A stretch of DNA of 64,000 nucleotides, taken from positions 6,688,001 through 6,752,000 of the forward strand of contig OY761556.1 of NCBI GenBank assembly GCA_963664705.1. The letters are read 5' to 3'. The notes beneath the pieces are model-generated. The model did not search any database and had not been told where the DNA came from. It saw only the letters and a list, made by a program, of their open reading frames with translations. Shown here in pieces: positions 19,977 to 31,654 of this stretch. Every line of letters starts with the position of its first letter. Positions within the stretch are counted from its first letter, which is position 1. The translations under genes and the position numbers were made by a program. Source of the stretch: Acidobacteriota bacterium (GTDB lineage Bacteria > Acidobacteriota > UBA6911).

Positions 19977-20053
19977 GCGCCCGTAGCTCAGCTGGATAGA
20001 GCGTTTGACTACGAATCAAAAGGTCGCAAGTTCGAGTCTTGCCGGGCGCACCA
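19977..20053 (+). tRNA. tRNA-Arg(ACG)
   Basis: 77 nt; acceptor stem GCGCCCG/CGGGCGC, anticodon arm TTTGA-CT-ACG-AA-TCAAA, GTTCGAG T-loop, encoded CCA. Confidence 0.97.
20007..20051 (+). repeat. att repeat, tRNA-proximal
   Basis: gactacgaatcaaaaggtcgcaagttcgagtcttgccgggcgcac. Confidence 0.93.
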
Positions 20054-20116
20054 CAAATCCTTGATTCTTCTGTAGTTGCCCATCTTCTGAAATCCGTAGT
20101 CCCTGGCCATAAGCAC

Positions 20117-20138
20117 CTTGGGGGTTATTTGGGGGTAA
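20117..20138. promoter_or_regulatory. Putative integrase arm-type site pair
   Basis: cttgggggttatttgggggtaa is identical at 29611-29632 and 31221-31242, with a variant at 31480-31500. Confidence 0.6.
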
Positions 20139-21212
20139 TCAGGCGGTTTTCGTCTTGTCTTTCGACGTAACTGCCAGCGAAGCTCCAAGCGCATTCATTG
20201 CCGCCCGGGTGTGCTCCGACGAGAGGTGAGCATATCTCAGTGTCATCTCAAAATCCTTATGCCTGAGAATTTCCTTCACGGTCGCGAGCGGAACTCCGCT
20301 CATGACCATGTGAGAGGCAGCGGTGTGTCTCAGTGTGTGGAATGTGACGTCTTCCAGCTTTGCCGCCTTGACAGCTTCCTCGAACTGCCGCTTGAGATCC
20401 CAGTAGGGCTGCCCTTTGATCTTCCCAGTGAAGACATAAGGAGAATCAAAGCGACGTGGAATGGATCGAAGAATCTCAACCGCTCTTTTGTCCAGCGGGA
20501 TGGTGGAATATTCGCCGTTCTTCTGGTCGAGGATTTCCAGATATTCCTGGCGAAGGTTGACATGCTCCCACTTCAGTCGAAAGACTTCGCTTTTGCGCAG
20601 TCCGGTGTGAAGTGCGAGCTCAATCATCTGCTTTAAGTCCGGAGTTGGACTGGCGTCCAGAAGAATGCTGCATTCTTCCGCGGTCAGATATCGCAACCGG
20701 CGATTGTTTTCCTTGAACTGCTTTACTCCGTGGCATGGATGGCTTTGGATAACCTTCCACTCAACAGCTTTGCTGAACAGATGCCGCAGACAAGCCATGC
20801 GGCGGTTGACCGTTGCCGGTTTGAACGGCAATTTGCGCCGGCTTTCTTTGTTCATCAGTTCAGCCTGGTACTTTTCAATGTCGGCACGTGTGATGCTGCT
20901 AAGCAAAGTGCCACTTCCGAATTGTGCTTTGATGCTCTCCAGATGAGACTCCTTGCTTTTGGCAGCTTTCTGGCCGATATCCTGGCACCATTGCGAATAC
21001 CGATCGGCGAATTGTCCGAGTGTGTCTTTGGAGACTCGTTTCTTTTCCAGGTATCGATCTTCATCAATGAGGGTCTGTATTTTCCTGAGATTTGTTTCAG
21101 CCATTTCCGGGGTAGCGCATGTTTCTCTTATTCGTACCCCTTTGAAGAACGTGTCTATCCTCCAGCGGTTGCCACGAGGCGCGATGCCAGGTGGTAACTT
21201 CTTTTTGCTCAT
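20139..21212 (-). CDS. int: Tyrosine recombinase/integrase
   Basis: HTGLRKSE (R), HTLRH, ILRH, TLRYAH catalytic residues; adjacent to the tRNA att site. Confidence 0.97.
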   Translation of the reverse strand: MSKKKLPPGIAPRGNRWRIDTFFKGVRIRETCATPEMAETNLRKIQTLIDEDRYLEKKRVSKDTLGQFADRYSQWCQDIGQKAAKSKESHLESIKAQFGSGTLLSSITRADIEKYQAELMNKESRRKLPFKPATVNRRMACLRHLFSKAVEWKVIQSHPCHGVKQFKENNRRLRYLTAEECSILLDASPTPDLKQMIELALHTGLRKSEVFRLKWEHVNLRQEYLEILDQKNGEYSTIPLDKRAVEILRSIPRRFDSPYVFTGKIKGQPYWDLKRQFEEAVKAAKLEDVTFHTLRHTAASHMVMSGVPLATVKEILRHKDFEMTLRYAHLSSEHTRAAMNALGASLAVTSKDKTKTA

Positions 21213-21304
21213 ATTTGTATCTCTCCGTTGGTAAAGGATTGTCGATCAATAACATCCCTGGTTTAGGATGCACGTTCATTCATTGACACGGCTGTGTGGA
21301 GGTG

Positions 21305-21520
21305 TCAATTGGATTTTGGCTTGATCAATGCTCGTTCGCTTCTCCGGAATAAGACAAGGTATCGCCAAAAGTGCCCATTGGGATCCTGGAAGACGATGGC
21401 AGTTTCGGATTTCCAGACAATCCTGTGCACAAAATGACCATCCAAAATCAGGGCAGGGGAAACAGATTTCGTTACCTCGTGCCGGGCCAGATGGATTTTT
21501 GTCATCTCAAGAAAGCTCAT
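21305..21520 (-). CDS. Small hypothetical protein between primase and integrase
   Basis: 71 aa, co-oriented with the core module, GAGG upstream. Confidence 0.45.
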   Translation of the reverse strand: MSFLEMTKIHLARHEVTKSVSPALILDGHFVHRIVWKSETAIVFQDPNGHFWRYLVLFRRSERALIKPKSN

Positions 21521-21537
21521 GCTATTGATTCCTCAGG

Positions 21538-21590
21538 TTGCGAGAAAAGCGGGATAAGCGAGATAAGCCGCCTTTTCTCGCTTTTCACGC
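21538..21590. repeat. 9-bp iteron cluster (putative origin)
   Basis: cgagaaaag cgggataag cgagataag followed by inverted cttttctcg cttttcacg, overlapping the primase stop codon. Confidence 0.65.
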
Positions 21591-23666
21591 AGATTTCCAT
21601 ACGGTTAACGGCCTTCCTTTGGTCTGTTTGCTCTCTTTTGTCACTTTGCCCACGCGCAATAATATATCCAGAGCTAGATCTTTCTCGCGAGTTCGATGCC
21701 CTCCAAAAAGGCGCCCAATCTCATCGTCTGTCAGGGATCCATCCGCTGATTCCTGCAAGGCATCGATAATCCTATCCGCACACTGATTCCCGGTCTTGGT
21801 TCCGAAGACATAGCGAACTGATGCATCGCAATAGTCCCATACTGCTGTTGCCGCCTGGAGATGTTCAATGCGGATCACGTTGGAACAATCCATTAGCGCA
21901 TAAATCAGGCTCAGCCGAAGCACTTGTGCCTCTGCCCGATTCAATAATCCACCAGCCAACCCAGGTTGGCCTTCAGATAAAGGGAAATAGATTGTTTCCC
22001 ACATTTCATTTGCCGGCGTATTGCGGACGATCCTGCCGGCGTTTCGGGCAAGGATCACGGCTCGTTCCATCTGTTCCGTCAGGCTGTTCAGTATCTCAGG
22101 CGGCAACGCCGCGCCGTGTGGTAATGCTTTTGATCTTTTTGCCAGCAGCCACAGGAACCGATTGCCAAACCCATTGCTCTGTTCTGTCGCAGACAGACAT
22201 CGGATCAATTCGTCTTTTGTGGTATGCCCGATGATCGAGACATGAGCGCCAGTTGAGTGGATAGGATTGTTACGAGTGAGCGTGGAAAGATTTCCGCTGT
22301 CCCACGCTTGCCGGATAACTCCTGAAAGGCTGTTTCCTTCTCGCCCCATGATCTTCAGCATGTTGGAAAATTCCGACTCGATGCAAAACAGACGCTTGTC
22401 TGGTTCTCCGGAATCAACAATCTCCTCTTCATAGTCGATAATTCGCCCACCCCTTTTTACCGGGACGGTTTTCCTCAATTCATCTCTGACGTGATAGATG
22501 AGTCCCTCTCCAGATGACAGCCCGCAGCGGACTCTACCTTCGGACCACTTGCCGTCAATCCTGCTGAATATTTCCCTTGGTGTGCTCCAGGATGTTCCTT
22601 TCCTCCCTTTGGAAGATTCTCCAATCACCACGGCGAAAATCCGAGCTGGATGCAGGTCATTTTGCACGGCTGCGTGTGCGCTGGACCCAATGATGTTTCC
22701 AAACGCGGCTAACACATGGATGAGCACAGAGGCCGGATCCGCTTCAGTATATGGGTCTATCGCGCGGACAATATCGCCAGGCAATCCATATAGAGCTTCA
22801 GGAGCCAGAACTGGCCATGAAAGAACTGTCGGTTCATTTTTCTGGCGCATCGAAATGTAGGGAGTCTTTTCATATGGAGACCCCTTTTGCATATGCTGGA
22901 TCAATTGATCATAAGTGCCTCCAGCTTGAATCCAATCGGACACATCTCCCTTTTCCGGCAATCCAGGAAGCGTCACAATCCCGACTCGGTTAGCGATAGG
23001 CATCAGATTGCGGGCAACGTCTCTTGCATGCCGTTCACCTGGCTCATCGTTATCTGGAAATATGGTCACTTCTTTACCGGTGAACAATGAATTGAAGTCC
23101 GCCCTCCATTTGCCGGCTCCTCCCGGATTGCAGGTTGCGGGAATGCCAATTGACCAGAGATGATCAACGTCCTTTTCGCCTTCGACGACGCAGACCATCT
23201 TTGAATCTTTCCATTCCGGCAACCTGTAGGGCAACAGCTTCACGCCCTGCATGCATCCCTCACCGCCGATCCACCCGCTGCCGTCCGCTCGCTCCTGAAC
23301 GAATGTCTTGCCTATTTGCGTCTTGTATCTTTTCACCCGAAACAGAGGATCCCCGTTCTCATTTCTATACACATAATCACAAATAAACTCCCAGCTGTTT
23401 TTCCCATTCAGCAGCCCATGATCACGCAGCCAGGATGAGACCGCTTTCCGGTTATCGGGATGAAGGCCGGAAATAAACGCCGCCAGATCCCAGGCATTGC
23501 CTGATTTGCCACAGGGGCCGCAGAGCCAGCAGTTCTTTTCCGGATTGATTGAAAGGCTGGGATGTTGATCGTCATGGCGAGGACACCGAAAAAGCATCTC
23601 TCTTCCTAAATACCGTCCACCCAAAAGGGCAGCTGCACGTGCGATCTCTATGCATTGGAGGGTCAT
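21585..23666 (-). CDS. Primase-helicase: CHC2-type Zn finger, Toprim and DUF3987-like P-loop domain
   Basis: CPRHDDQHPSL...CGPCG; VVEGEKD; FPDNDEPG; KGDVSDW; GESSKGRKGT; LSSGEGLI; GFGNRFLW. ATG 23666 overlaps the Xis stop (ATGA). Confidence 0.85.
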   Translation of the reverse strand: MTLQCIEIARAAALLGGRYLGREMLFRCPRHDDQHPSLSINPEKNCWLCGPCGKSGNAWDLAAFISGLHPDNRKAVSSWLRDHGLLNGKNSWEFICDYVYRNENGDPLFRVKRYKTQIGKTFVQERADGSGWIGGEGCMQGVKLLPYRLPEWKDSKMVCVVEGEKDVDHLWSIGIPATCNPGGAGKWRADFNSLFTGKEVTIFPDNDEPGERHARDVARNLMPIANRVGIVTLPGLPEKGDVSDWIQAGGTYDQLIQHMQKGSPYEKTPYISMRQKNEPTVLSWPVLAPEALYGLPGDIVRAIDPYTEADPASVLIHVLAAFGNIIGSSAHAAVQNDLHPARIFAVVIGESSKGRKGTSWSTPREIFSRIDGKWSEGRVRCGLSSGEGLIYHVRDELRKTVPVKRGGRIIDYEEEIVDSGEPDKRLFCIESEFSNMLKIMGREGNSLSGVIRQAWDSGNLSTLTRNNPIHSTGAHVSIIGHTTKDELIRCLSATEQSNGFGNRFLWLLAKRSKALPHGAALPPEILNSLTEQMERAVILARNAGRIVRNTPANEMWETIYFPLSEGQPGLAGGLLNRAEAQVLRLSLIYALMDCSNVIRIEHLQAATAVWDYCDASVRYVFGTKTGNQCADRIIDALQESADGSLTDDEIGRLFGGHRTREKDLALDILLRVGKVTKESKQTKGRPLTVWKSA

Positions 23667-23863
23667 GTCCGCCCGACCTCCCGTTGTTTCATCCACTTCG
23701 TCAGATCGGACGGCTTTACGCGAAAGACCCGTCGGCAGGCTCCCTGGGACACAATCACGCTTGGGATCTCGCCACTGGCAATCATCTGGTGGATCTTGCT
23801 TCGCCGGAGATTGAGGATTTCGCCGACTTCCTTGGGCCCCAAAAGTTTTTCAATAATCTCCAT
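23663..23863 (-). CDS. Excisionase-like helix-turn-helix protein
   Basis: 66 aa, LLGPKEVGEILNL.RSKIHQMIASGEIPS...RVKPSDL..W (HTH_17-like). Confidence 0.85.
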   Translation of the reverse strand: MEIIEKLLGPKEVGEILNLRRSKIHQMIASGEIPSVIVSQGACRRVFRVKPSDLTKWMKQREVGRT

Positions 23864-23889
23864 TGTTCCAGGCTCCTTGTGAGATGAAG

Positions 23890-24300
23890 TTAATGGCCTT
23901 CTGCTTCGAGCTTTTTCCGTATTGCCGCAGCCTCTTCTTTGGGTAGCCGGTGCAGGTTGTATCGTTCACTGTAGGTGAACTCGAAAACAGGCTTTGGCGT
24001 TTCCTGACGGGGCAGCAGCGGAATAAATCGCTCCTGGTGGGGCATTTGGGGACTATCCGCCTTATGTTGAATCGATAGAGTTTTTCTAGCCTCAGCATCC
24101 TTTCGAAAAAAATACACCTTGCGCCCACCGGATCGTGCTTTGACAAATTTTGCGATGGCTGCATGCTGAATGATCAGGCCGTGCCTCTCACGCAGAATGA
24201 CGGCAATTCGCCTGTAGGAGACAGGCGGCCGTTCGCTTCGCAAATCGCTGATTTCACTTTTGTATGGGATCAAGCTTGATTGAAATGGTTTTCCCGGCAC
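23890..24300 (-). CDS. Putative DNA-binding (HTH-like) protein, first gene of the core operon
   Basis: Basic 136-aa protein with SYRRIAVILRERHGL.I..AAIAKFVK; AAAGGA RBS. Confidence 0.65.
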   Translation of the reverse strand: MPGKPFQSSLIPYKSEISDLRSERPPVSYRRIAVILRERHGLIIQHAAIAKFVKARSGGRKVYFFRKDAEARKTLSIQHKADSPQMPHQERFIPLLPRQETPKPVFEFTYSERYNLHRLPKEEAAAIRKKLEAEGH

Positions 24301-24350
24301 GGGTTATTCCTTTCTGTTTCTGCAACATGGCGCTATGGAAAGAGGCAACA

Positions 24351-24456
24351 TGTCTCCGCTTTGTATCCGCTGTGTGTCCACTTCAGCGTTGAGGATGTAG
24401 AAAAGTGGAGACAGAGTGGAGACAAAGCGGATACAAGTCTCCACTTTGTCTCCACT
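24351..24456. repeat. Eight 11-bp repeats (consensus AGYGGAKACAR) in three alternating-orientation blocks
   Basis: tgtctccgctt tgtatccgctg tgtgtccact / agtggagacag agtggagacaa agcggataca / gtctccacttt gtctccact. Confidence 0.75.
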
Positions 24457-25141
24457 CCATTGGGGCTCGATGGGATGCTTCGAGGTATTGCGTCTAGGAT
24501 TGGAAGGGACCAATCCTAGAATTTCCATCAAGGCTTCCGTGGCTAACCGGCAACATGTAACATCGAATGAATCGCGCTCGATAGACAGAAAAAGGTGGGA
24601 GACATTTCTTGTCACGGCAATCTCCAATTAATGGGAAAGCATTGGTTCTTCCACCACTCATAGACAACGAGCGGGAAAATGGCTCAAAACTTACCGGGCA
24701 TTTTTCCGTATTGTCCTTTTTATCCGTGGCTCATTGCCGAATACCGTTTTGATAAAGAGTGAATGCCGTTCCGACCACCGGTTGCAGCACGTCAGTTTAT
24801 GTACCAAGAAAGGTCGTCACGCTGTCTTTCCATGCGCAGAAAATCCAGGAAAGAGTATACAGGCGATTTGAGAACACTTTTGTGGATGGCGGCTCATGAG
24901 GCCGCGAAAGAGGCCATTTGCCGGGCCAATTGAACAATGGTGAAACATGGAGAATCGATATGAACAATCACCCGGACGCAGAATAATAAAAAAACAAAAT
25001 GCAATTACCTATTGACACATTAAAGAATAAATACTCTTTTTTTAACGATCAATGGTTCAAGAAGTCACCGGAACGAGTGACGATAATTGCCTTCTTGATT
25101 CTGCCTCATCATGTGAAAATGGAGTCAAATTGGAGGCGTGC

Positions 25142-25534
25142 ATGGCTGCGGGTGATCCCCAGAGAACGTGGTTCCCGGAGATGATCCAGAAATTGCGGTT
25201 AGAGTGGAATGAAAGCATGGCTATCCCGGATCTAGTGGCACTATGCGATTCATTAGATAGCATGCTTCATGAAATTCGCTCCACTCGAAATATTCGCCCA
25301 CCTATCGTGAAGTGTCCTAAATGCGGAAAGGTTGGACCTGCCGCAGAAAGACATGTGAGTGTTCGTGCCATGATTCTTTCGCTAAGCCGGTTCGACATCG
25401 TCGATTCGGAGCGTGTAAAAATATTAGAGAAAAAATGGGCGGCTTATCGTAAAGAAAACGGGCTCAATCTCTATGGCAAGGCTGAAACTGGCGAAGTCAG
25501 AATCAGAAGCTGTGTCGATTCCGAAGCCGAGTAA
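25142..25534 (+). CDS. Hypothetical protein with CPKC motif
   Basis: MAAGDPQRTWFPEM...; GGAGG RBS before ATG 25142. Confidence 0.7.
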   Translation: MAAGDPQRTWFPEMIQKLRLEWNESMAIPDLVALCDSLDSMLHEIRSTRNIRPPIVKCPKCGKVGPAAERHVSVRAMILSLSRFDIVDSERVKILEKKWAAYRKENGLNLYGKAETGEVRIRSCVDSEAE

Positions 25535-25718
25535 TGCGTCGCAGAATAAAGCTCCTGAAGGGAACTTTCAGGTGGTAGGCGGTCCTCACGCAATTTTTGG
25601 CGTTTTATATAAGTTAGGGACCCGACTTTACATATTGGCGTTCTTTCCCCCAATCGGACTTATCGGGACCGGTGATTCTGATTAGTGTTTTCTATGCGGC
25701 TAGAGCTATGGTAGAGGT

Positions 25719-26099
25719 ATGAACCTTCTGAATCGTTCAGTTCTCGGCTTTTTGGTTTTTGCTATCTCCATATGCTTTGGGGCATTGCTTGCGTTCTCGG
25801 CCAGTTCCGTTTTTCGGATGCATCCTTTTGGGGATAAGACTTCGGTTTTGTTTCCAGTATTAGTAGGGATACCATTGGGCTGCGCGCTTGGAAGTGCCAC
25901 GAATCTAAAAATGCATAGACCAAAGATATATGAGAATCGCGGCATCCTGGTGGCGGCGGCGATTGTGGGAGCTTTGGGAGCAATGCTGTGCGTTGTTTTG
26001 GCTGATGCGCTTGAAGGCAAAATATTGCTCCTAAGCCCCTTCATTGTGAGCATCCTGTCTTTTGGAGCATTTTGCTTTTTAATTCATTCCAGGCCCTGA
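25719..26099 (+). CDS. Small membrane protein with about 4 TM segments
   Basis: Four hydrophobic stretches; GAGG directly upstream. Confidence 0.6.
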   Translation: MNLLNRSVLGFLVFAISICFGALLAFSASSVFRMHPFGDKTSVLFPVLVGIPLGCALGSATNLKMHRPKIYENRGILVAAAIVGALGAMLCVVLADALEGKILLLSPFIVSILSFGAFCFLIHSRP

Positions 26100-26259
26100 G
26101 ACAATTACCATTATGGCGTTCTCTCCCATATTCGGACTTCCTGGGACTTGTGTCTAGAAATATGTGATCTAAAATCAATTGTTTCACATCCTACAAGTCA
26201 GCTACAGTTTAGCCTTGGTCTGCGTCAGTTACGCAATTGCATTATGTGAGGGGCTGAAA

Positions 26260-27702
26260 TTGTCTGTCCAAGCGAAATGGTGCAAATTAGCGATGCACTG
26301 TATGGTTTTTACGTCCATACTGCATTATTCTGCTTTCAGTCAATCCGAAAGTAAGAACCCGATAGACAAGGCGCAATCCAGCGGTTCGTTCAATATTCAT
26401 GTGGATGTCGATTTAGTTACTACTGACGTGACCGTGACTGGAGCCGACGCGCCAGAATTTCAGGCCAGCGATTTTGCAATTTATGAAGACGATGTTTCTC
26501 AAAATCTAACCTACTTCTCTCGTGATCAACTTCCGATTGCAGTTGCGTTGTTGGTTGACAGCAGCGGCAGCATTGAAAAGCATCTGAATGAATTGCAAAT
26601 TGCGGCGCTGACTGCATTACGGCGTCTGAAAGCGGAAGATCAAGTCGCGCTCTATTCCTTTTCAGGCGGCTACAGGAAACTGAGCAACCTCACAGCTGAT
26701 CGATTGCATATAGCCAAATTACTCAGCCATCTCTCAATCATGGAAGGCGGGACTGATATATTTTATGCACTCCAGGATGCAACGCGTTACCTAAAAAGGG
26801 CAGCTCCGCATCATCGCAGAGCGATTATTCTTATTTCCGACAATTGCCATGCCAATGGCAAAGCCAGGCCCGACAAAATGCTGAATGAGTTGCTGGAAAG
26901 TGCCACCACGCTTTATGATATTGTAACTCCCAGCGACCATAGTGACTTGCCTTACTGTTTGATGACGGATCCCGCCATAAGAAAAATTTCTGCCGATTCC
27001 GGCGGTGAAATTGTGGATGTAAGAAACTCGATGTCGCTCAAAGGAGCATTGGGAAAAGCTATATCCAGAATTCGAATGCAATACACTTTGGGTTTCAATC
27101 CATCTGATCCCAGCCCAAAGGGGACATATCATAGATTAAAGGTCCGCTTTGCCGATGAGAATCGTTGCCGAACATGCAGAATTATCGGACGTAGCGGATA
27201 TTATTCAGGAGCATCGTTATCCGTTGCAGTTTCCGGCAAGACACAAGAAATAGCGCCACCTCACTCGACAGACTCTGATCAGCAGTTGTTGCAGAGAATT
27301 ATCCTTATTGCAGGGACATCTTCGCCAGAATTTCGTGAAATTCCATTCACGGTTACAACTGAAAAGCAAACAGCTCTCAGTGGAAAAAGAGAGGTTAAAC
27401 TTGATTTGCGGATTAATCCTTCTGAAATAGAGTTTCAGATTTCCAAGGGAAAACGAACCTACAAAGTGGTTGCAGCCATTCTGCACGCAGATGCGAAAGG
27501 AGAGATAAAAGGCTGCGAATCGTGGGTACTTGAAGATCAGCTTAGCAGGGAGGAATTTGATCGCATAATTAGGGACGGAATTCATGTAACTACTACGGTC
27601 AATTTGGAGCCACAAAATCAAATGCTAAAAGCCGTAATTTATGATGAAAACAGCGGCAAACTAGGCAGTGGATTTGTTTTTGGCTCTTACGGCGAGCGCT
27701 GA
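26260..27702 (+). CDS. Acidobacterial VWA-domain protein with C-terminal extension
   Basis: IHVDVDLVTTDVTV, MIDAS DSSGS, GGTD, ILISDN, QYTLGF; TTG start at 26260 after GAGGGG (start uncertain). Confidence 0.85.
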   Translation: MSVQAKWCKLAMHCMVFTSILHYSAFSQSESKNPIDKAQSSGSFNIHVDVDLVTTDVTVTGADAPEFQASDFAIYEDDVSQNLTYFSRDQLPIAVALLVDSSGSIEKHLNELQIAALTALRRLKAEDQVALYSFSGGYRKLSNLTADRLHIAKLLSHLSIMEGGTDIFYALQDATRYLKRAAPHHRRAIILISDNCHANGKARPDKMLNELLESATTLYDIVTPSDHSDLPYCLMTDPAIRKISADSGGEIVDVRNSMSLKGALGKAISRIRMQYTLGFNPSDPSPKGTYHRLKVRFADENRCRTCRIIGRSGYYSGASLSVAVSGKTQEIAPPHSTDSDQQLLQRIILIAGTSSPEFREIPFTVTTEKQTALSGKREVKLDLRINPSEIEFQISKGKRTYKVVAAILHADAKGEIKGCESWVLEDQLSREEFDRIIRDGIHVTTTVNLEPQNQMLKAVIYDENSGKLGSGFVFGSYGER

Positions 27703-27729
27703 TCACAACCATGATGGGAGGCATTCCCA

Positions 27730-28956
27730 ATGCGAGAAGCTGATATTTCGTTAAAAAATAACCGGATTTTAATACTTCTGATAATTGGAATCGTTTTTGT
27801 TTGCTTTTCAGTGCGTGTGAATAGCAGAGAGAATCAGATTCAATCTGTGGACAGGGTGCAACAGTCCAGCGGGCCGGATGGAGATGCAAAAATCCGAGTC
27901 TCCGCTAAAGAGATAAGATTTGATGCTGTAGTTTTAGATAAGAGCGGCCATCAAGCCATTGATCTAAAATCAGCTGATTTTGATATCTATCAAGATAATA
28001 AGAAGCAAACAGTCAATTCATGCACTTATATCGCCCATAGGCCAATCCATCTTGCAGTGCCAACTCACGTGTCAAAGGGATCAAAGACGGAGTCAATGAT
28101 AGCTTCTTCCGGACTGAGCGGCGTCGATACTCGACGAAAGATAGTCTTTTTCCCAAACTATCCCGCTATGACCCTCAAGCAAAGTCATGAGACCCAGATG
28201 TTTATTAAGAAGTTTATTGAGGACGAAATGCAGGAAGGGGATCTGGTCGCGATCACAATGAATCCGCAGGGCGATACGGAGTCGCAGATCTTCAGCTCTG
28301 ATAAAGCTTTTGTTCTTTCCGTGCTGACCCAGGGTAAATGGTGGAGCGGGCCACAACAGAATATGGAAGGGTATGGCTTGCCACTTAGTAATTGTATTCG
28401 TAAATTACAAAATATTCCCGGCCGCAAATCGTTAATAGTAATCTCACCTGAGCCGGCGTATTTGGCCGGCTACGTATACCAAGTAATATCCCCTGAATTA
28501 TTAGAGAAGATGCATGAAGTACCGGCTGATGCCGCTTTCCGGGCCGGAGTTGTCATTCACATAATAGATATTAGCGAACCGAAAAAACTTGATGCGATTG
28601 ATCACACTTTTTCTTCAGCTGGGAGTATTAGTGCTGCGGAAGAAGCAAACATGATTCGCCATGAACTCGCGAGAAAAAGTGCTGAGTCTCAATTTCCTTT
28701 GGCAAAAAGAACCGGAGGCCTTTTGGCCAAGAATTTATCAGCAAAAACAATGGAAAACATAAAGGAACAATTAGGCGGTTATTACCTGCTAACTTATACT
28801 CCGGAAGAGAGCACTTTCACTCCTCCCCCAGACTTGAGTAGGAGGCCTCCCTATCGCAAGATAAAAATCAAAGTGAAGCGATCAGGTATGGAAGTATATG
28901 CGCGAGATGGTTTCTTTGGAGTGCCATCACGCGAGAACACTGTAACGGGGAAATGA
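27730..28956 (+). CDS. VWA-related protein with degenerate MIDAS
   Basis: IRVSAKEIRFDAVVLDKSGH...DFDIYQD, PGRKSLIVIS, TGG, YYLLTY.P, YRKIKIKV, ARDGFF; no DxSxS. Confidence 0.8.
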   Translation: MREADISLKNNRILILLIIGIVFVCFSVRVNSRENQIQSVDRVQQSSGPDGDAKIRVSAKEIRFDAVVLDKSGHQAIDLKSADFDIYQDNKKQTVNSCTYIAHRPIHLAVPTHVSKGSKTESMIASSGLSGVDTRRKIVFFPNYPAMTLKQSHETQMFIKKFIEDEMQEGDLVAITMNPQGDTESQIFSSDKAFVLSVLTQGKWWSGPQQNMEGYGLPLSNCIRKLQNIPGRKSLIVISPEPAYLAGYVYQVISPELLEKMHEVPADAAFRAGVVIHIIDISEPKKLDAIDHTFSSAGSISAAEEANMIRHELARKSAESQFPLAKRTGGLLAKNLSAKTMENIKEQLGGYYLLTYTPEESTFTPPPDLSRRPPYRKIKIKVKRSGMEVYARDGFFGVPSRENTVTGK

Positions 28957-29167
28957 TTTCCTCATTTCTGACCCTTTAAAAACCGCATTTTTGTCTTAAG
29001 TCCCAAGAAACGGCATTCGAGGAAACTACTCTGGCTTTGCAACAGTGGCGGATTCCATTTTTGCTGGCAGCTAAGTTTCAAGCTTTGAAAGATGACGCTT
29101 TTGTGGAATGATCTCTGGAATCGCTTCTAATCTTATAGTCCATGAAATTACTTGGCCTAAATTCGAG

Positions 29168-29216
29168 ACGCACTAAACACGCAGAATTTACGCACCATCG
29201 GCGCACCAAGCACGCA
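29168..29216. repeat. Imperfect 11-bp tandem repeat (ACGCA core, about 5 units)
   Basis: acgcactaaac acgcagaattt acgcaccatcg gcgcaccaagc acgca. Confidence 0.55.
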
Positions 29217-29308
29217 TCCGGATAAATGCCCTTCCGGAAACTTGAATTCTAAGGCGAAGCCTTAGGGATGGTGTCTTACTACAGATATTTCCACAAGCAG
29301 CAACACCT

Positions 29309-29392
29309 CACCGGACCATACCCTGACAAACACCGGACAAGCGCCGGACACCGAACAGACGTCGAACAACAGTCGAACAAACACCGAACAGT
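29309..29392. repeat. Imperfect ~11-bp tandem repeat (CACCGRACAAA-like, about 8 units)
   Basis: caccggaccat accctgacaaa caccggacaag cgccggac accgaacaga cgtcgaacaac agtcgaacaaa caccgaacagt. Confidence 0.6.
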
Positions 29393-29531
29393 AGATATCC
29401 AGAATGCCTTCTCTGTGCGTATTCTGATCTGCGTTCTGATAAAGGTTGATAGAGAACGCAAGCTGAACAATGGGGTACTAGTGGATCGATGATTGAGGCT
29501 CCGACCGGTGCTCAGTCATTCATAGCCCAGA

Positions 29532-29632
29532 CTTTTCTCGCTTATCTCGCTTTTCTCGCATGCCCGGATATTTTGAATTGTTCCCGCGATGTCGGAATTA
29601 CTTGAAAATTCTTGGGGGTTATTTGGGGGTAA
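29532..29632 (+). repeat. ~100-bp direct repeat A (3 iterons plus arm-type pair)
   Basis: cttttctcg cttatctcg cttttctcg ca...gaaaattcttgggggttatttgggggtaa; aligns along its length with 31139-31242. Confidence 0.85.
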
Positions 29633-29642
29633 ATATCGATGT

Positions 29643-29663
29643 TTATTTATTTACAATAAATAA
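29643..29663. promoter_or_regulatory. Inverted repeat in the AT-rich abiE promoter (putative AbiEi operator)
   Basis: ttatttatt-tac-aataaataa, a perfect 9-bp inverted repeat ~20 bp before the ATG. AbiEi proteins are known to autorepress at promoter inverted repeats. Confidence 0.5.
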
Positions 29664-29684
29664 CAAATATGTTAATTATTATAT

Positions 29685-30326
29685 ATGAAATATGGATCGC
29701 TGGTTGAGCTGGTTGGCTCCATGGAATGCTTCGATCTGCAGCTGCTTGTGCAGGCATTCGCTGAACCGCGAGAAATTATCCGGGTGCAGTTGTCCCGCTG
29801 GATCAGCGACCACAAGGTAATCAGTCTGCGACGCGGAGTTTATACGCTCCCAGACACCTATCGCCGCGTATCTATCGTGCCGGCAAGACTGGCGAATCAA
29901 CTCTATCACCCATCTTATCTGAGCGGCTTGTGGGCTTTGGGTTACTACGACATGATCCCCGAAAGAGTCGTATGGTTGACGAGCGTAACTCCTCGGGTGC
30001 CCCGTCGTTTTGACAATTCTCTTGGCATTTTCGATTATCGCAGCATTAAACAGAAGGCGTTTTTCGGATCTGTAACCGCACCCTACGGCGATCGGTCCAT
30101 ATTGGTTGCGGAACCTGAGAAAGCGCTACTGGATCATTGGCATCTCACATCGGGTGAGTGGACTGCAGAACGCCTTGAGGAAATGCGCTATCAGCATTGT
30201 CGGCAGGTGAATAGGGACAAGCTTCAAGCCTATGCAGATCGTTTCCAAAGCCCGCGCTTATATCGAGCAGCCGAACGCTGGCTGACGGTAACAGCCGAAG
30301 AAGAGAAAGGCACGGTTACTCTATGA
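29685..30326 (+). CDS. abiEi: Type IV toxin-antitoxin AbiEi-family antitoxin
   Basis: QLSRW...LRRGVY, PSYLSGLWALGYYDMIPE, AEPEKALLD; overlaps the toxin gene (ATGA). Confidence 0.88.
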   Translation: MKYGSLVELVGSMECFDLQLLVQAFAEPREIIRVQLSRWISDHKVISLRRGVYTLPDTYRRVSIVPARLANQLYHPSYLSGLWALGYYDMIPERVVWLTSVTPRVPRRFDNSLGIFDYRSIKQKAFFGSVTAPYGDRSILVAEPEKALLDHWHLTSGEWTAERLEEMRYQHCRQVNRDKLQAYADRFQSPRLYRAAERWLTVTAEEEKGTVTL

Positions 30327-31129
30327 GGGATCAGGCACTGGCACTTGCACGTGGAGCAAAAGATCCGGGGCAGGCGCTCAACCTGCTGCGAGAATATCTC
30401 CAAACGCTTGTCCTGCGATCATTTCATGAGTGTGAGGCATTTCGTAATCTGGCGTTTGTCGGCGGTACAGCGTTACGCTTCCTCCATAATCTGCCGCGTT
30501 TTTCTGAAGATCTCGATTTCTCGATGGTGTCTGAAAAGGGCTATGCCGGCATGGAGTGGATGTCGAAAGTCAAACGTGATTTGTCTCTGGCAGGATTCGA
30601 TCCCCACCTCACCTGGAATGATCGCAAGGTTGTTCATACAGGATGGATCCGGCTGGCAGGGCTGCTTTATGACGCCGGCATTTCCGGAGTGCCGGACCAG
30701 AAGCTGGCCATCAAGCTGGAAATTGACACTCGTCCACCGGCTGGGGCAATCTGCGAAAGAAGCATCATTACCCGTACCGTGACTTTTTTTGTCCAGCATT
30801 ACGATCTGCCGTCCATGATGGCGGGCAAGCTTCATGCTGCAATTACACGAAAATATGTCAAAGGCCGCGACTGGTATGATCTCCTGTGGTACAGGACGCA
30901 ACGTCCGCCAGTTGAACCGAACATTAATTTGCTTCAGAAGGCTTTGGATCAAACTCATCGTTCAGCCAAATACAATGCCCATGCGTGGCAAAGCTTGGTG
31001 AGTGATCGTCTGGCGTCAATCAGCATCAAAGATATTACCGGCGACGTTTATCCATTTTTGGAACACCCTCAGGATGCCGCACTCCTTACGCGGGAAAATC
31101 TGTCTGGTTTATTTTCAGTTCAACATTGA
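30323..31129 (+). CDS. abiEii: AbiEii-family nucleotidyltransferase toxin
   Basis: FVGGTAL...RFSEDLDF, IKLEID, K..A...R...GRDWYDL. Confidence 0.92.
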   Translation: MRDQALALARGAKDPGQALNLLREYLQTLVLRSFHECEAFRNLAFVGGTALRFLHNLPRFSEDLDFSMVSEKGYAGMEWMSKVKRDLSLAGFDPHLTWNDRKVVHTGWIRLAGLLYDAGISGVPDQKLAIKLEIDTRPPAGAICERSIITRTVTFFVQHYDLPSMMAGKLHAAITRKYVKGRDWYDLLWYRTQRPPVEPNINLLQKALDQTHRSAKYNAHAWQSLVSDRLASISIKDITGDVYPFLEHPQDAALLTRENLSGLFSVQH

Positions 31130-31138
31130 GGTTGCGCC

Positions 31139-31242
31139 CTTATCTCGCTTTTCCCGCTTTTCTCGCAAGCCGGGATAAGCTTGAAGTGCCCCTTGCGATG
31201 CTGGAATTTGCCGGAAAATTCTTGGGGGTTATTTGGGGGTAA
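31139..31242 (+). repeat. ~100-bp direct repeat B (3 iterons plus arm-type pair)
   Basis: cttatctcg cttttcccg cttttctcg caa...gaaaattcttgggggttatttgggggtaa; the first 30 bp match the reverse complement of 21538-21567 with one mismatch. Confidence 0.85.
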
Positions 31243-31369
31243 TTGGGAGGCAAAAACAGCTTTTGGTGAACAAGATGGACAAATCAAATATCCTAATTAC
31301 AGCTAATAACCATGAGGGTGCGACGCATATTCTTGATTTATCTGGATTTATGAAAAATGCTCCTGGAGG

Positions 31370-31414
31370 GACTACGAATCAAAAGGTCGCAAGTTCGAGT
31401 CTTGCCGGGCGCAC
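31370..31414 (+). repeat. Distal att repeat (duplicated 3' part of tRNA-Arg)
   Basis: 45/45 identical to 20007-20051. Confidence 0.93.
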
Positions 31415-31504
31415 TCTAACCCCTTCAATCCTCTTAACTTAAGCACCCGGTTCAATTCGCAACTCCTGTTCATGCTGTCCTTGGGGGCTATATGGGGGCA
31501 GTTG

Positions 31505-31654
31505 TGCTGTTTTTGCCTCTTCTTTGGGTTTCACTTTCAAAGCTTTACTCAATGCTTCCAATGCTTCTTGCCGATGTTCCGGTGATAGATGCGAATATCT
31601 CAGGGTTGTTGAATAATCCTAGTGTCTGAGGATTTCCTTCACCGTGTGCAGATC
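31505..31654 (-). pseudogene. Relic C-terminus of a second, related tyrosine integrase
   Basis: Manual translation DLHTVKEILRH*DYSTTLRYSHLSPEHRQEALEALSKALKVKPKEEAKTA versus PLATVKEILRHKDFEMTLRYAHLSSEHTRAAMNALGASL...KTA in the intact integrase; in-frame stop and missing 5' part. Confidence 0.88.

Follow-up and report, generated by a model that had tools for sequence, protein, structure and literature searches.

We examined a genomic island in a 64,000-nucleotide (nt) stretch of an Acidobacteriota genome (GTDB lineage UBA6911; GenBank assembly GCA_963664705.1, contig OY761556.1, positions 6,688,001 to 6,752,000 of the forward strand), here called the window, and the 9-bp repeats that lie near both ends of this island. 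The island is 11,363 nt long, is seated in a tRNA-Arg(ACG) gene and has a 45-nt repeat at both borders, the core of its attachment site (att); a Logan unitig for the island spans 20022-31399. Inward from the tRNA, the minus strand encodes an integrase, an open reading frame (ORF) of 71 amino acids (aa), a CHC2-TOPRIM-DUF3987 protein that we call the primase-helicase, and an HTH_17 excisionase-like gene (Table 1). Among the cargo genes are a VWA gene and an AbiEi/AbiEii pair. Genes for packaging or capsid interference (terS, sid, psu, capsid) were absent from the 13 ORFs compared with Pfam and the five compared with PHROGs; five short ORFs belonged to no family. The closest relatives of the island were found in Acidobacteriota assemblies. 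A tandem motif at 20118 recurs at the right end and, judged by sequence, is most likely the arm site of the integrase, because other islands with diverged integrases have their own, different tandem motif at both ends.

The repeats have the consensus CTTWTCYCG. An exact search of the window confirmed the positions given in an earlier note on this DNA and returned 15 units against 2.67 expected, a count reached by none of 100 shuffles. The earlier note had described three copies plus two inverted ones at the primase end; three and one of these are exact, and the fifth unit (21581-21589, CTTTTCACG), which contains the primase stop, has one mismatch. The other units lie where they had been placed, but the inverted unit behind the distal triplet had been missed. 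Positions 21538-21567 and 31139-31168 are 97% complementary over 30 nt, as claimed (29/30). The opposed sets at the primase end are 4 nt apart with GC-rich sequence between them, the distal triplet begins about 80 nt before the arm of the right attachment site (attR) with a spacer of ~55 nt between, and a third triplet has exact units at 29532, 29541 and 29550 (+). The primase-end and distal triplets are separated by 9,571 nt in the integrated island and by 1,738 nt across the attP junction, in agreement with the proposed drop from ~9.6 kb to under 2 kb on excision.

Table 1. Features of the island, with positions numbered from the first letter of the window.
Feature	Position	Strand	Remarks
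tRNA-Arg(ACG), integration target	19977..20053	+	ARAGORN
Left att core	20007..20051	+	45-nt identity with 31370-31414
Left-end arm-like tandem motif of integrase (TTGGGGGTTA-TTTGGGGGTAA)	20118..20138	+	
Tyrosine integrase, 357 aa	20139..21212	-	PF00589, E 4e-31
71-aa ORF, directly after primase-end triplet	21305..21520	-	kept in close relatives; no Pfam family
Primase-end triplet (likely origin half)	21541..21567	-	units 21541, 21550, 21559
Opposed doublet across primase stop	21572..21589	+	second unit with 1 mismatch
Primase-helicase, 703 aa	21585..23696	-	CHC2 zinc finger, TOPRIM, DUF3987, C-terminal winged helix
Winged-helix domain	21588..21803	-	last 72 residues
Excisionase-like HTH_17 gene	23663..23863	-	
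Module best read as relic right end	29532..29632	+	triplet at 29532-29558, then ~55-nt spacer and arm motif; att core absent
AbiEi/AbiEii cassette	29640..31129	+	
Distal triplet	31139..31165	+	units 31139, 31148, 31157; 204 nt before att core
Inverted single unit following distal triplet	31171..31179	-	
Right-end arm-like motif of integrase	31222..31242	+	
Right att core, 3' part of tRNA-Arg	31370..31414	+	arm and integrase remnant of an older island next to it

The possibility that the triplet is a common genome-wide repeat, which the earlier note had named as fatal to its proposal, was rejected: only three CTTWTCYCG triplets were found in the source genome (6,894,879 nt), even with three mismatches permitted, and all are inside the island. 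One further exact doublet occurs in the genome, within the remains of another such island. At a tRNA-Ala sequence, a remnant island from this lineage (L395, G000:C1:5738440-5743915) has the 9-mer doublet before its arm. This remnant holds both arms, only the C-terminus of an integrase, a large cargo gene and a Fic gene, and could be mobilised in trans.

Published accounts relate DUF3987 to MCM and give it a winged helix at the C-terminus (PMC4889955), and one member acts as a helicase (PMC11724360). The DUF3987 part of the island protein was modelled as an MCM-like AAA+ domain (predicted local distance difference test score, pLDDT, 84), and its best Foldseek matches were MCM subunits (E 4e-8). 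The last 72 residues were modelled with confidence as a winged helix (pLDDT 89.5), and this model matched QsrR (VIA Z 10.0, root-mean-square deviation 2.7 over 71 residues); no solved origin-binding domain stood out among its structure matches. In this model His667 (codon 21696-21698) is residue 36 of 72 and would lie in the turn before a predicted recognition helix (residues 39-50). DUF3987 was matched by 5,103 of 7,995 scored candidates, and only distant helicases were present in the plasmid and phage collections. One close relative (80%; L002:2054-3295) has no primase domain, and its helicase directly follows the excisionase.

Co-variation of the repeat with the primase had been set as a check beforehand, and it was found. 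From 75 distinct helicase C-termini we set aside eight that came from the scan for this CTTWTCYCG triplet, leaving 67 that were fetched by protein homology, a set that includes the window and some near-duplicates. Abutting 9-bp arrays of the form RCGnnnWAn were present at the helicase gene end in 44 of the 67 and in both orientations in 24. By a strict rule, under which 37 of the 67 rows had arrays, winged-helix residue 667 and repeat base 1 paired as His with G in 23 rows and as Asn with A in 10, and no row was crossed (Fisher 1e-8). The remainder consisted of two Asn rows called T, which is a phase artefact, two Arg rows, and 30 uncalled rows. By a relaxed rule, the 60 rows with His or Asn gave 26 His/GCG, 19 Asn/ACG, none crossed and 15 uncalled.

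Residue 667 was the best column of the whole alignment for base 1 (adjusted mutual information 0.90; next column 0.22), and no column gave a clear signal for bases 4-6 (best 0.47, 0.39 and 0.19). The pattern was first spotted by eye in 36 rows, and the loci fetched afterwards agree by eye (nine His/GCG and nine Asn/ACG, of which one Asn/ACG locus, L321, has a GCG doublet as well). An artefact of GC content was ruled out, as genes of the His and Asn groups did not differ in GC (p 0.27). The residue changed state seven times on a quick tree for which the winged helix had been left out of the alignment. In protein-DNA chemistry, Asn commonly contacts adenine and His guanine. Two loci with Arg at this position (L319, L328) have GCGC-type arrays, possibly a third state of the code.

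In Staphylococcus aureus pathogenicity islands (SaPIs), the C-terminal winged helix of the helicase binds iterons just after its gene, with adjacent domains on adjacent iterons (PMC9371898; bioRxiv 10.64898/2026.10.17.759575). Because of this precedent, and because repeat base 1 co-varies with residue 667, the winged-helix tail of the island helicase is the likely binder of the 9-bp repeats. Opposed arrays in relatives take two forms, one inward-facing around a short GC-rich centre and the other outward-facing with 45 nt to 1.25 kb between the arrays. In eight loci (G049, G048, G020, G051, G243, L200, L277 and L316) such widely spaced opposed arrays lie within the gene, on either side of the helicase domain. 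Four of seven close relatives (L002, L135, G126:C18 and G126:C9) have only a single triplet at the primase end.

We therefore read the triplets as likely docking sites for the winged helices of the primase-helicase, and the att-side triplet as the likely opposed counterpart of the one at the primase end, the two together making up an origin of the excised circle; we put the probability of this reading at roughly 0.55. A second origin part beyond att is favoured because excision yields the outward-facing form of the relatives and because four of the seven close primase ends have a single triplet. If the helicase behaves as SaPI Rep does, each triplet would be bound by three neighbouring winged helices of a single hexamer, and two opposed triplets would load two hexamers. 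After excision, the pair would face across int and attP at 1,738 nt, in the orientation that relatives build over their shorter distances.

The distal triplet recurs in relatives. Among 51 family genomes, the doublet pattern was found in the source genome and in 10 of 29 other genomes of the same genus, and a reversed-pattern control in none of the 51. The 19 same-genus doublet or triplet sites outside the source genome comprised four primase ends, 10 sites before an arm motif and five that were neither; for eight of the 10 arm-preceding sites a tRNA fragment follows ~250 nt further on. When the window was compared with 10 distal modules, identity was 0.89 in the triplet and 0.86 in the arm, against 0.24 in the 43 nt upstream and 0.38 in the spacer. 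Since the triplet is so much better kept than the sequence on either side, this comparison indicates that it is under selection.

The spacer between triplet and arm keeps a near-constant length of ~55 nt in most same-genus modules while its sequence drifts. Such regular placement beside the attR arm would suit a site from which the helicase acts on recombination, helping or blocking the integrase complex so that, for example, the circle does not re-integrate while it replicates, and the cis replication region (crr) of phage P4 is similarly near attP (193 nt). We consider this role improbable, as L062 (173 nt) and L354 have a longer spacer, the arm motif differs in L043, where the triplet lies ~250 nt before a tRNA fragment, and the second cluster of L308 is 1.4 kb from att. 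L308 is a circular element, a 9.1-kb contig with a terminal repeat and attP, which encodes an unrelated integrase and a helicase of 47% identity with a different unit. Full opposed pairs of its cognate unit are present both at the primase end and 1.4 kb past attP.

Most relatives are on short contigs, and few complete elements of the window's lineage were therefore available. Both sites occur in one island in G126:C9, in which the primase is frameshifted, and probably also in G131, on two contigs that each end at a tRNA-Ala sequence. A second cognate cluster in G020:C5 is 10 kb away, and no att was found there. The distal-end triplet was absent from two control islands with related integrases and other helicases, G125:C1 (56% integrase, AAA_25 helicase) and L394, the second island of the source genome (54-56% integrase, D5 helicase). 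L394 (G000:C1:1332273-1351195) is a D5/SF3 primase-helicase island with opposed 9-bp-phased GCGAAGG doublets at the gene end and an arm motif that differs from that of the window island.

A distal triplet that is not a helicase site in use, either bound by the excisionase, the integrase or the 71-aa protein or left as a fossil primase end, would account for its position next to the arm, for its persistence in remnants without a primase and for the resemblance of its ~20-nt flank to the flank at the primase end. This is the least probable of the explanations that we weighed. The distal unit is identical in sequence to the primase-end unit, the unit varies with the helicase residue even among elements whose integrases are unrelated, and the triplet is as conserved as the arm while neighbouring sequence has diverged. 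Furthermore, islands with a related integrase and excisionase and another helicase are without the triplet, although their arm motifs differ too.

Several observations count against a two-part origin that spans att. The window, L001 and L038 already have both orientations (2 + 3) at the primase end, and the full pair at both places in L308 means that the distal set need not be a missing half. The code itself is supported by two independent His/Asn pairs on strongly supported branches (the best quick tree has seven), a number too small for a sign test, and the 67-row set contains near-duplicates. Within the same genus, distal triplets mostly belong to remnants in which the stretch examined has neither primase nor integrase, and the ~20 nt after the distal triplet fit descent from an old primase end. 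The earlier note had held that homologous elements should have matched repeats at both places; matched arrays do recur in relatives at the primase end and ahead of the distal att, both of them in G126:C9, and L308 has clusters at both places, but four distant elements with both ends visible (G018:C13, G008:C4, G281:C1 and L306) have no distal cognate array.

Wider scans gave mixed results. A metagenome scan that matched at least 121 stretches gave no fewer than 35 loci with exact triplets; among the 35 listed, nine are helicase ends, five precede an arm or a tRNA fragment, five are microsatellites and 16 are other sites, away from helicase ends and with no att signature following, which again speaks against the att-spanning pair. 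One of the 16 (L036) is ~550 nt from a helicase end. A far cognate triplet was present at one of 38 viral loci, many of them partial, a further point on that side. Scans of 401 genomes of the phylum for ACG- and GCG-type triplets gave no att-proximal triplet outside the source genome among the 17 sites listed, three of which are this island, and the ACG scan of viral contigs returned mostly unrelated repeats.

Many of these observations would also be explained if the 2 + 3 cluster at the primase end were the whole origin and the distal triplet, bound by the helicase, were an accessory site, helping replication or controlling copy number regardless of its distance. Both orientations are indeed present locally in the window, L001 and L038, many relatives have a local pair only, L308 has complete pairs at both places, and the P4 sites are 4,719 nt apart in both states. 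The four close relatives with only a single local triplet do not fit this explanation, nor does the strong conservation of the distal triplet in one orientation and one position. We regard it as possible, though unlikely, and retain the two-part origin with its second part beyond att as the preferred reading.

A stronger version, about which we are rather doubtful, is that the origin is gated by excision. Opposed triplets at the island ends would work only once joined across attP, keeping the helicase from firing in the chromosome, and the His/Asn switch would set the repeat that is read, so that protein sequence could predict the origins used throughout a very large family of helicases. A need for the att-straddling pair would explain in simple physical terms why an integrated replicative element does not fire its origin in the chromosome. 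On the other side, the window has both orientations locally, L308 has two complete clusters, and looping of the DNA could span the 9.6 kb between the triplets in the integrated island. Logan contig depth for the island and its flanks was 12.5 and 7.9-10.5, respectively, in X1, and 17.7 and 19.5-26 in X2; no attP joint was present in these contigs, which break at the 45-nt repeat and cannot display one.

The earlier note compared the island with phage P4, whose alpha protein binds both ori1 and crr; crr acts independently of distance. In both elements two separate clusters of one repeat are present, and one cluster lies ~200 nt from the att core on the side away from the integrase (193 nt in P4, 204 nt in the island). 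The parallel ends there. In the P4 record, crr is 45 nt from the alpha stop, and is thus also the cluster at the alpha 3' end, and the ori repeats lie 4,719 nt from it without att in between; because crr and ori1 share one side, excision does not bring them together, whereas the island clusters are on opposite sides of att. The crr duplication is a 120-bp tandem, unlike the two distal copies of the island, which flank the AbiE cassette at a distance of 1.6 kb; for the 29532 copy, a relic island end before that cassette is a better reading than a crr-style duplication. The replicase had been called unrelated, and the comparison agrees: alpha is of the SF3/D5 type, and the MCM-like island helicase has no alignable similarity to it (best BLASTP E 0.13).

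Origins of SaPIs and other phage-inducible chromosomal islands (Rep2/Repbov1, SF6 MCM-like; Rep1 and PriRep5, SF3) are closer in plan. They share with the island a primase-helicase with a C-terminal winged helix and iterons right after the gene in opposite orientations (2 + 3 units at 21541-21589 in the island). SaPI iterons are 5-7 nt long around an AT-rich centre, within ~300 bp, whereas the island has abutting 9-mers, a few GC-rich bases as the local centre and one cognate set beyond att. No AT-rich centre of the SaPI type was found; AT content was 54% in the gap between int and primase, 57% from triplet to core and 52% in the island. PICMIs, which are minimalist chromosomal islands that phages induce and whose models use DUF3987 (PMC10803314), likewise combine int, an alpA-type HTH gene and a DUF3987/DUF5906 primase, but they lie beside fis in Vibrionaceae, whereas this island is in tRNA-Arg and its close relatives are Acidobacteriota. 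In the staphylococcal cassette chromosome mec (SCCmec), the C-terminal domain of Cch2 binds downstream repeats (PMC7581432).

The feature is real, and we view the proposed origin as a variant of the satellite-type helicase origin. No description of such 9-bp arrays, a His/Asn base code or an att-straddling copy was found in the mainly open-access literature searched. For DUF3987 helicases of the SF6 class in phages and islands, which include AgaPH and the PICMI primases, the accessible text names no binding site or iteron, and that of PMC9942202, PMC5812530 and PMC7145576 has nothing on split origins. Helicases of the DUF3987 type are common on both islands and phages, and the same literature yielded no binding site for them. 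The 9-bp triplet, read through a single residue, is a handle on how a self-loading MCM-like helicase finds its origin, and the code would allow predictions of trans replication between islands.

The third triplet belongs to a module (29532-29632) that repeats 31139-31242 directly over ~100 nt at 82% identity and ends in the tandem motif that recurs at 20118-20138. The AbiE cassette between the two copies (about 29640-31123) was found at 85-87% identity in G125 and G128, in other contexts and without flanking triplets, and for this reason the module is best read as a former right end of the island. The AbiE cassette and a new end would have been added, and the earlier end would have stayed behind. 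A similar module without a core is present in G127:C7. The triplet was also considered as an operator of AbiEi, and this was rejected, since the cassette occurs elsewhere without triplets and its conserved upstream sequence begins ~10 nt after the arm.

Other features of the locus and its relatives were recorded. Immediately 3' of the right att core, positions 31414-31651 hold the arm motif and C-terminal integrase remnant of an older island, and tRNA-Arg(ACG) is a hotspot for tandem insertion in the genus. The product of the 71-aa ORF is a candidate regulator or loader; an M-x-YL-x-IAR-like start follows the array in nine of 67 relatives, and a TubC_N-fused form is present in G125. Upstream of the excisionase, the region 23890-24560 contains a 136-aa ORF and inverted repeats whose homologues occur twice elsewhere, next to a MobF-like relaxase region (G000:C1:5657835-5658484) and at 6484514-6485122. 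On a tailed-phage contig without a helicase (L159:3840 and 10485), two CTTWTCYCG clusters flank packaging genes, one of them near tRNA-Met. Finally, L089:900-1300 has arrays of the CTTWTCYCG 9-mer together with a different 9-bp unit, as if gathering sites for several replicases.

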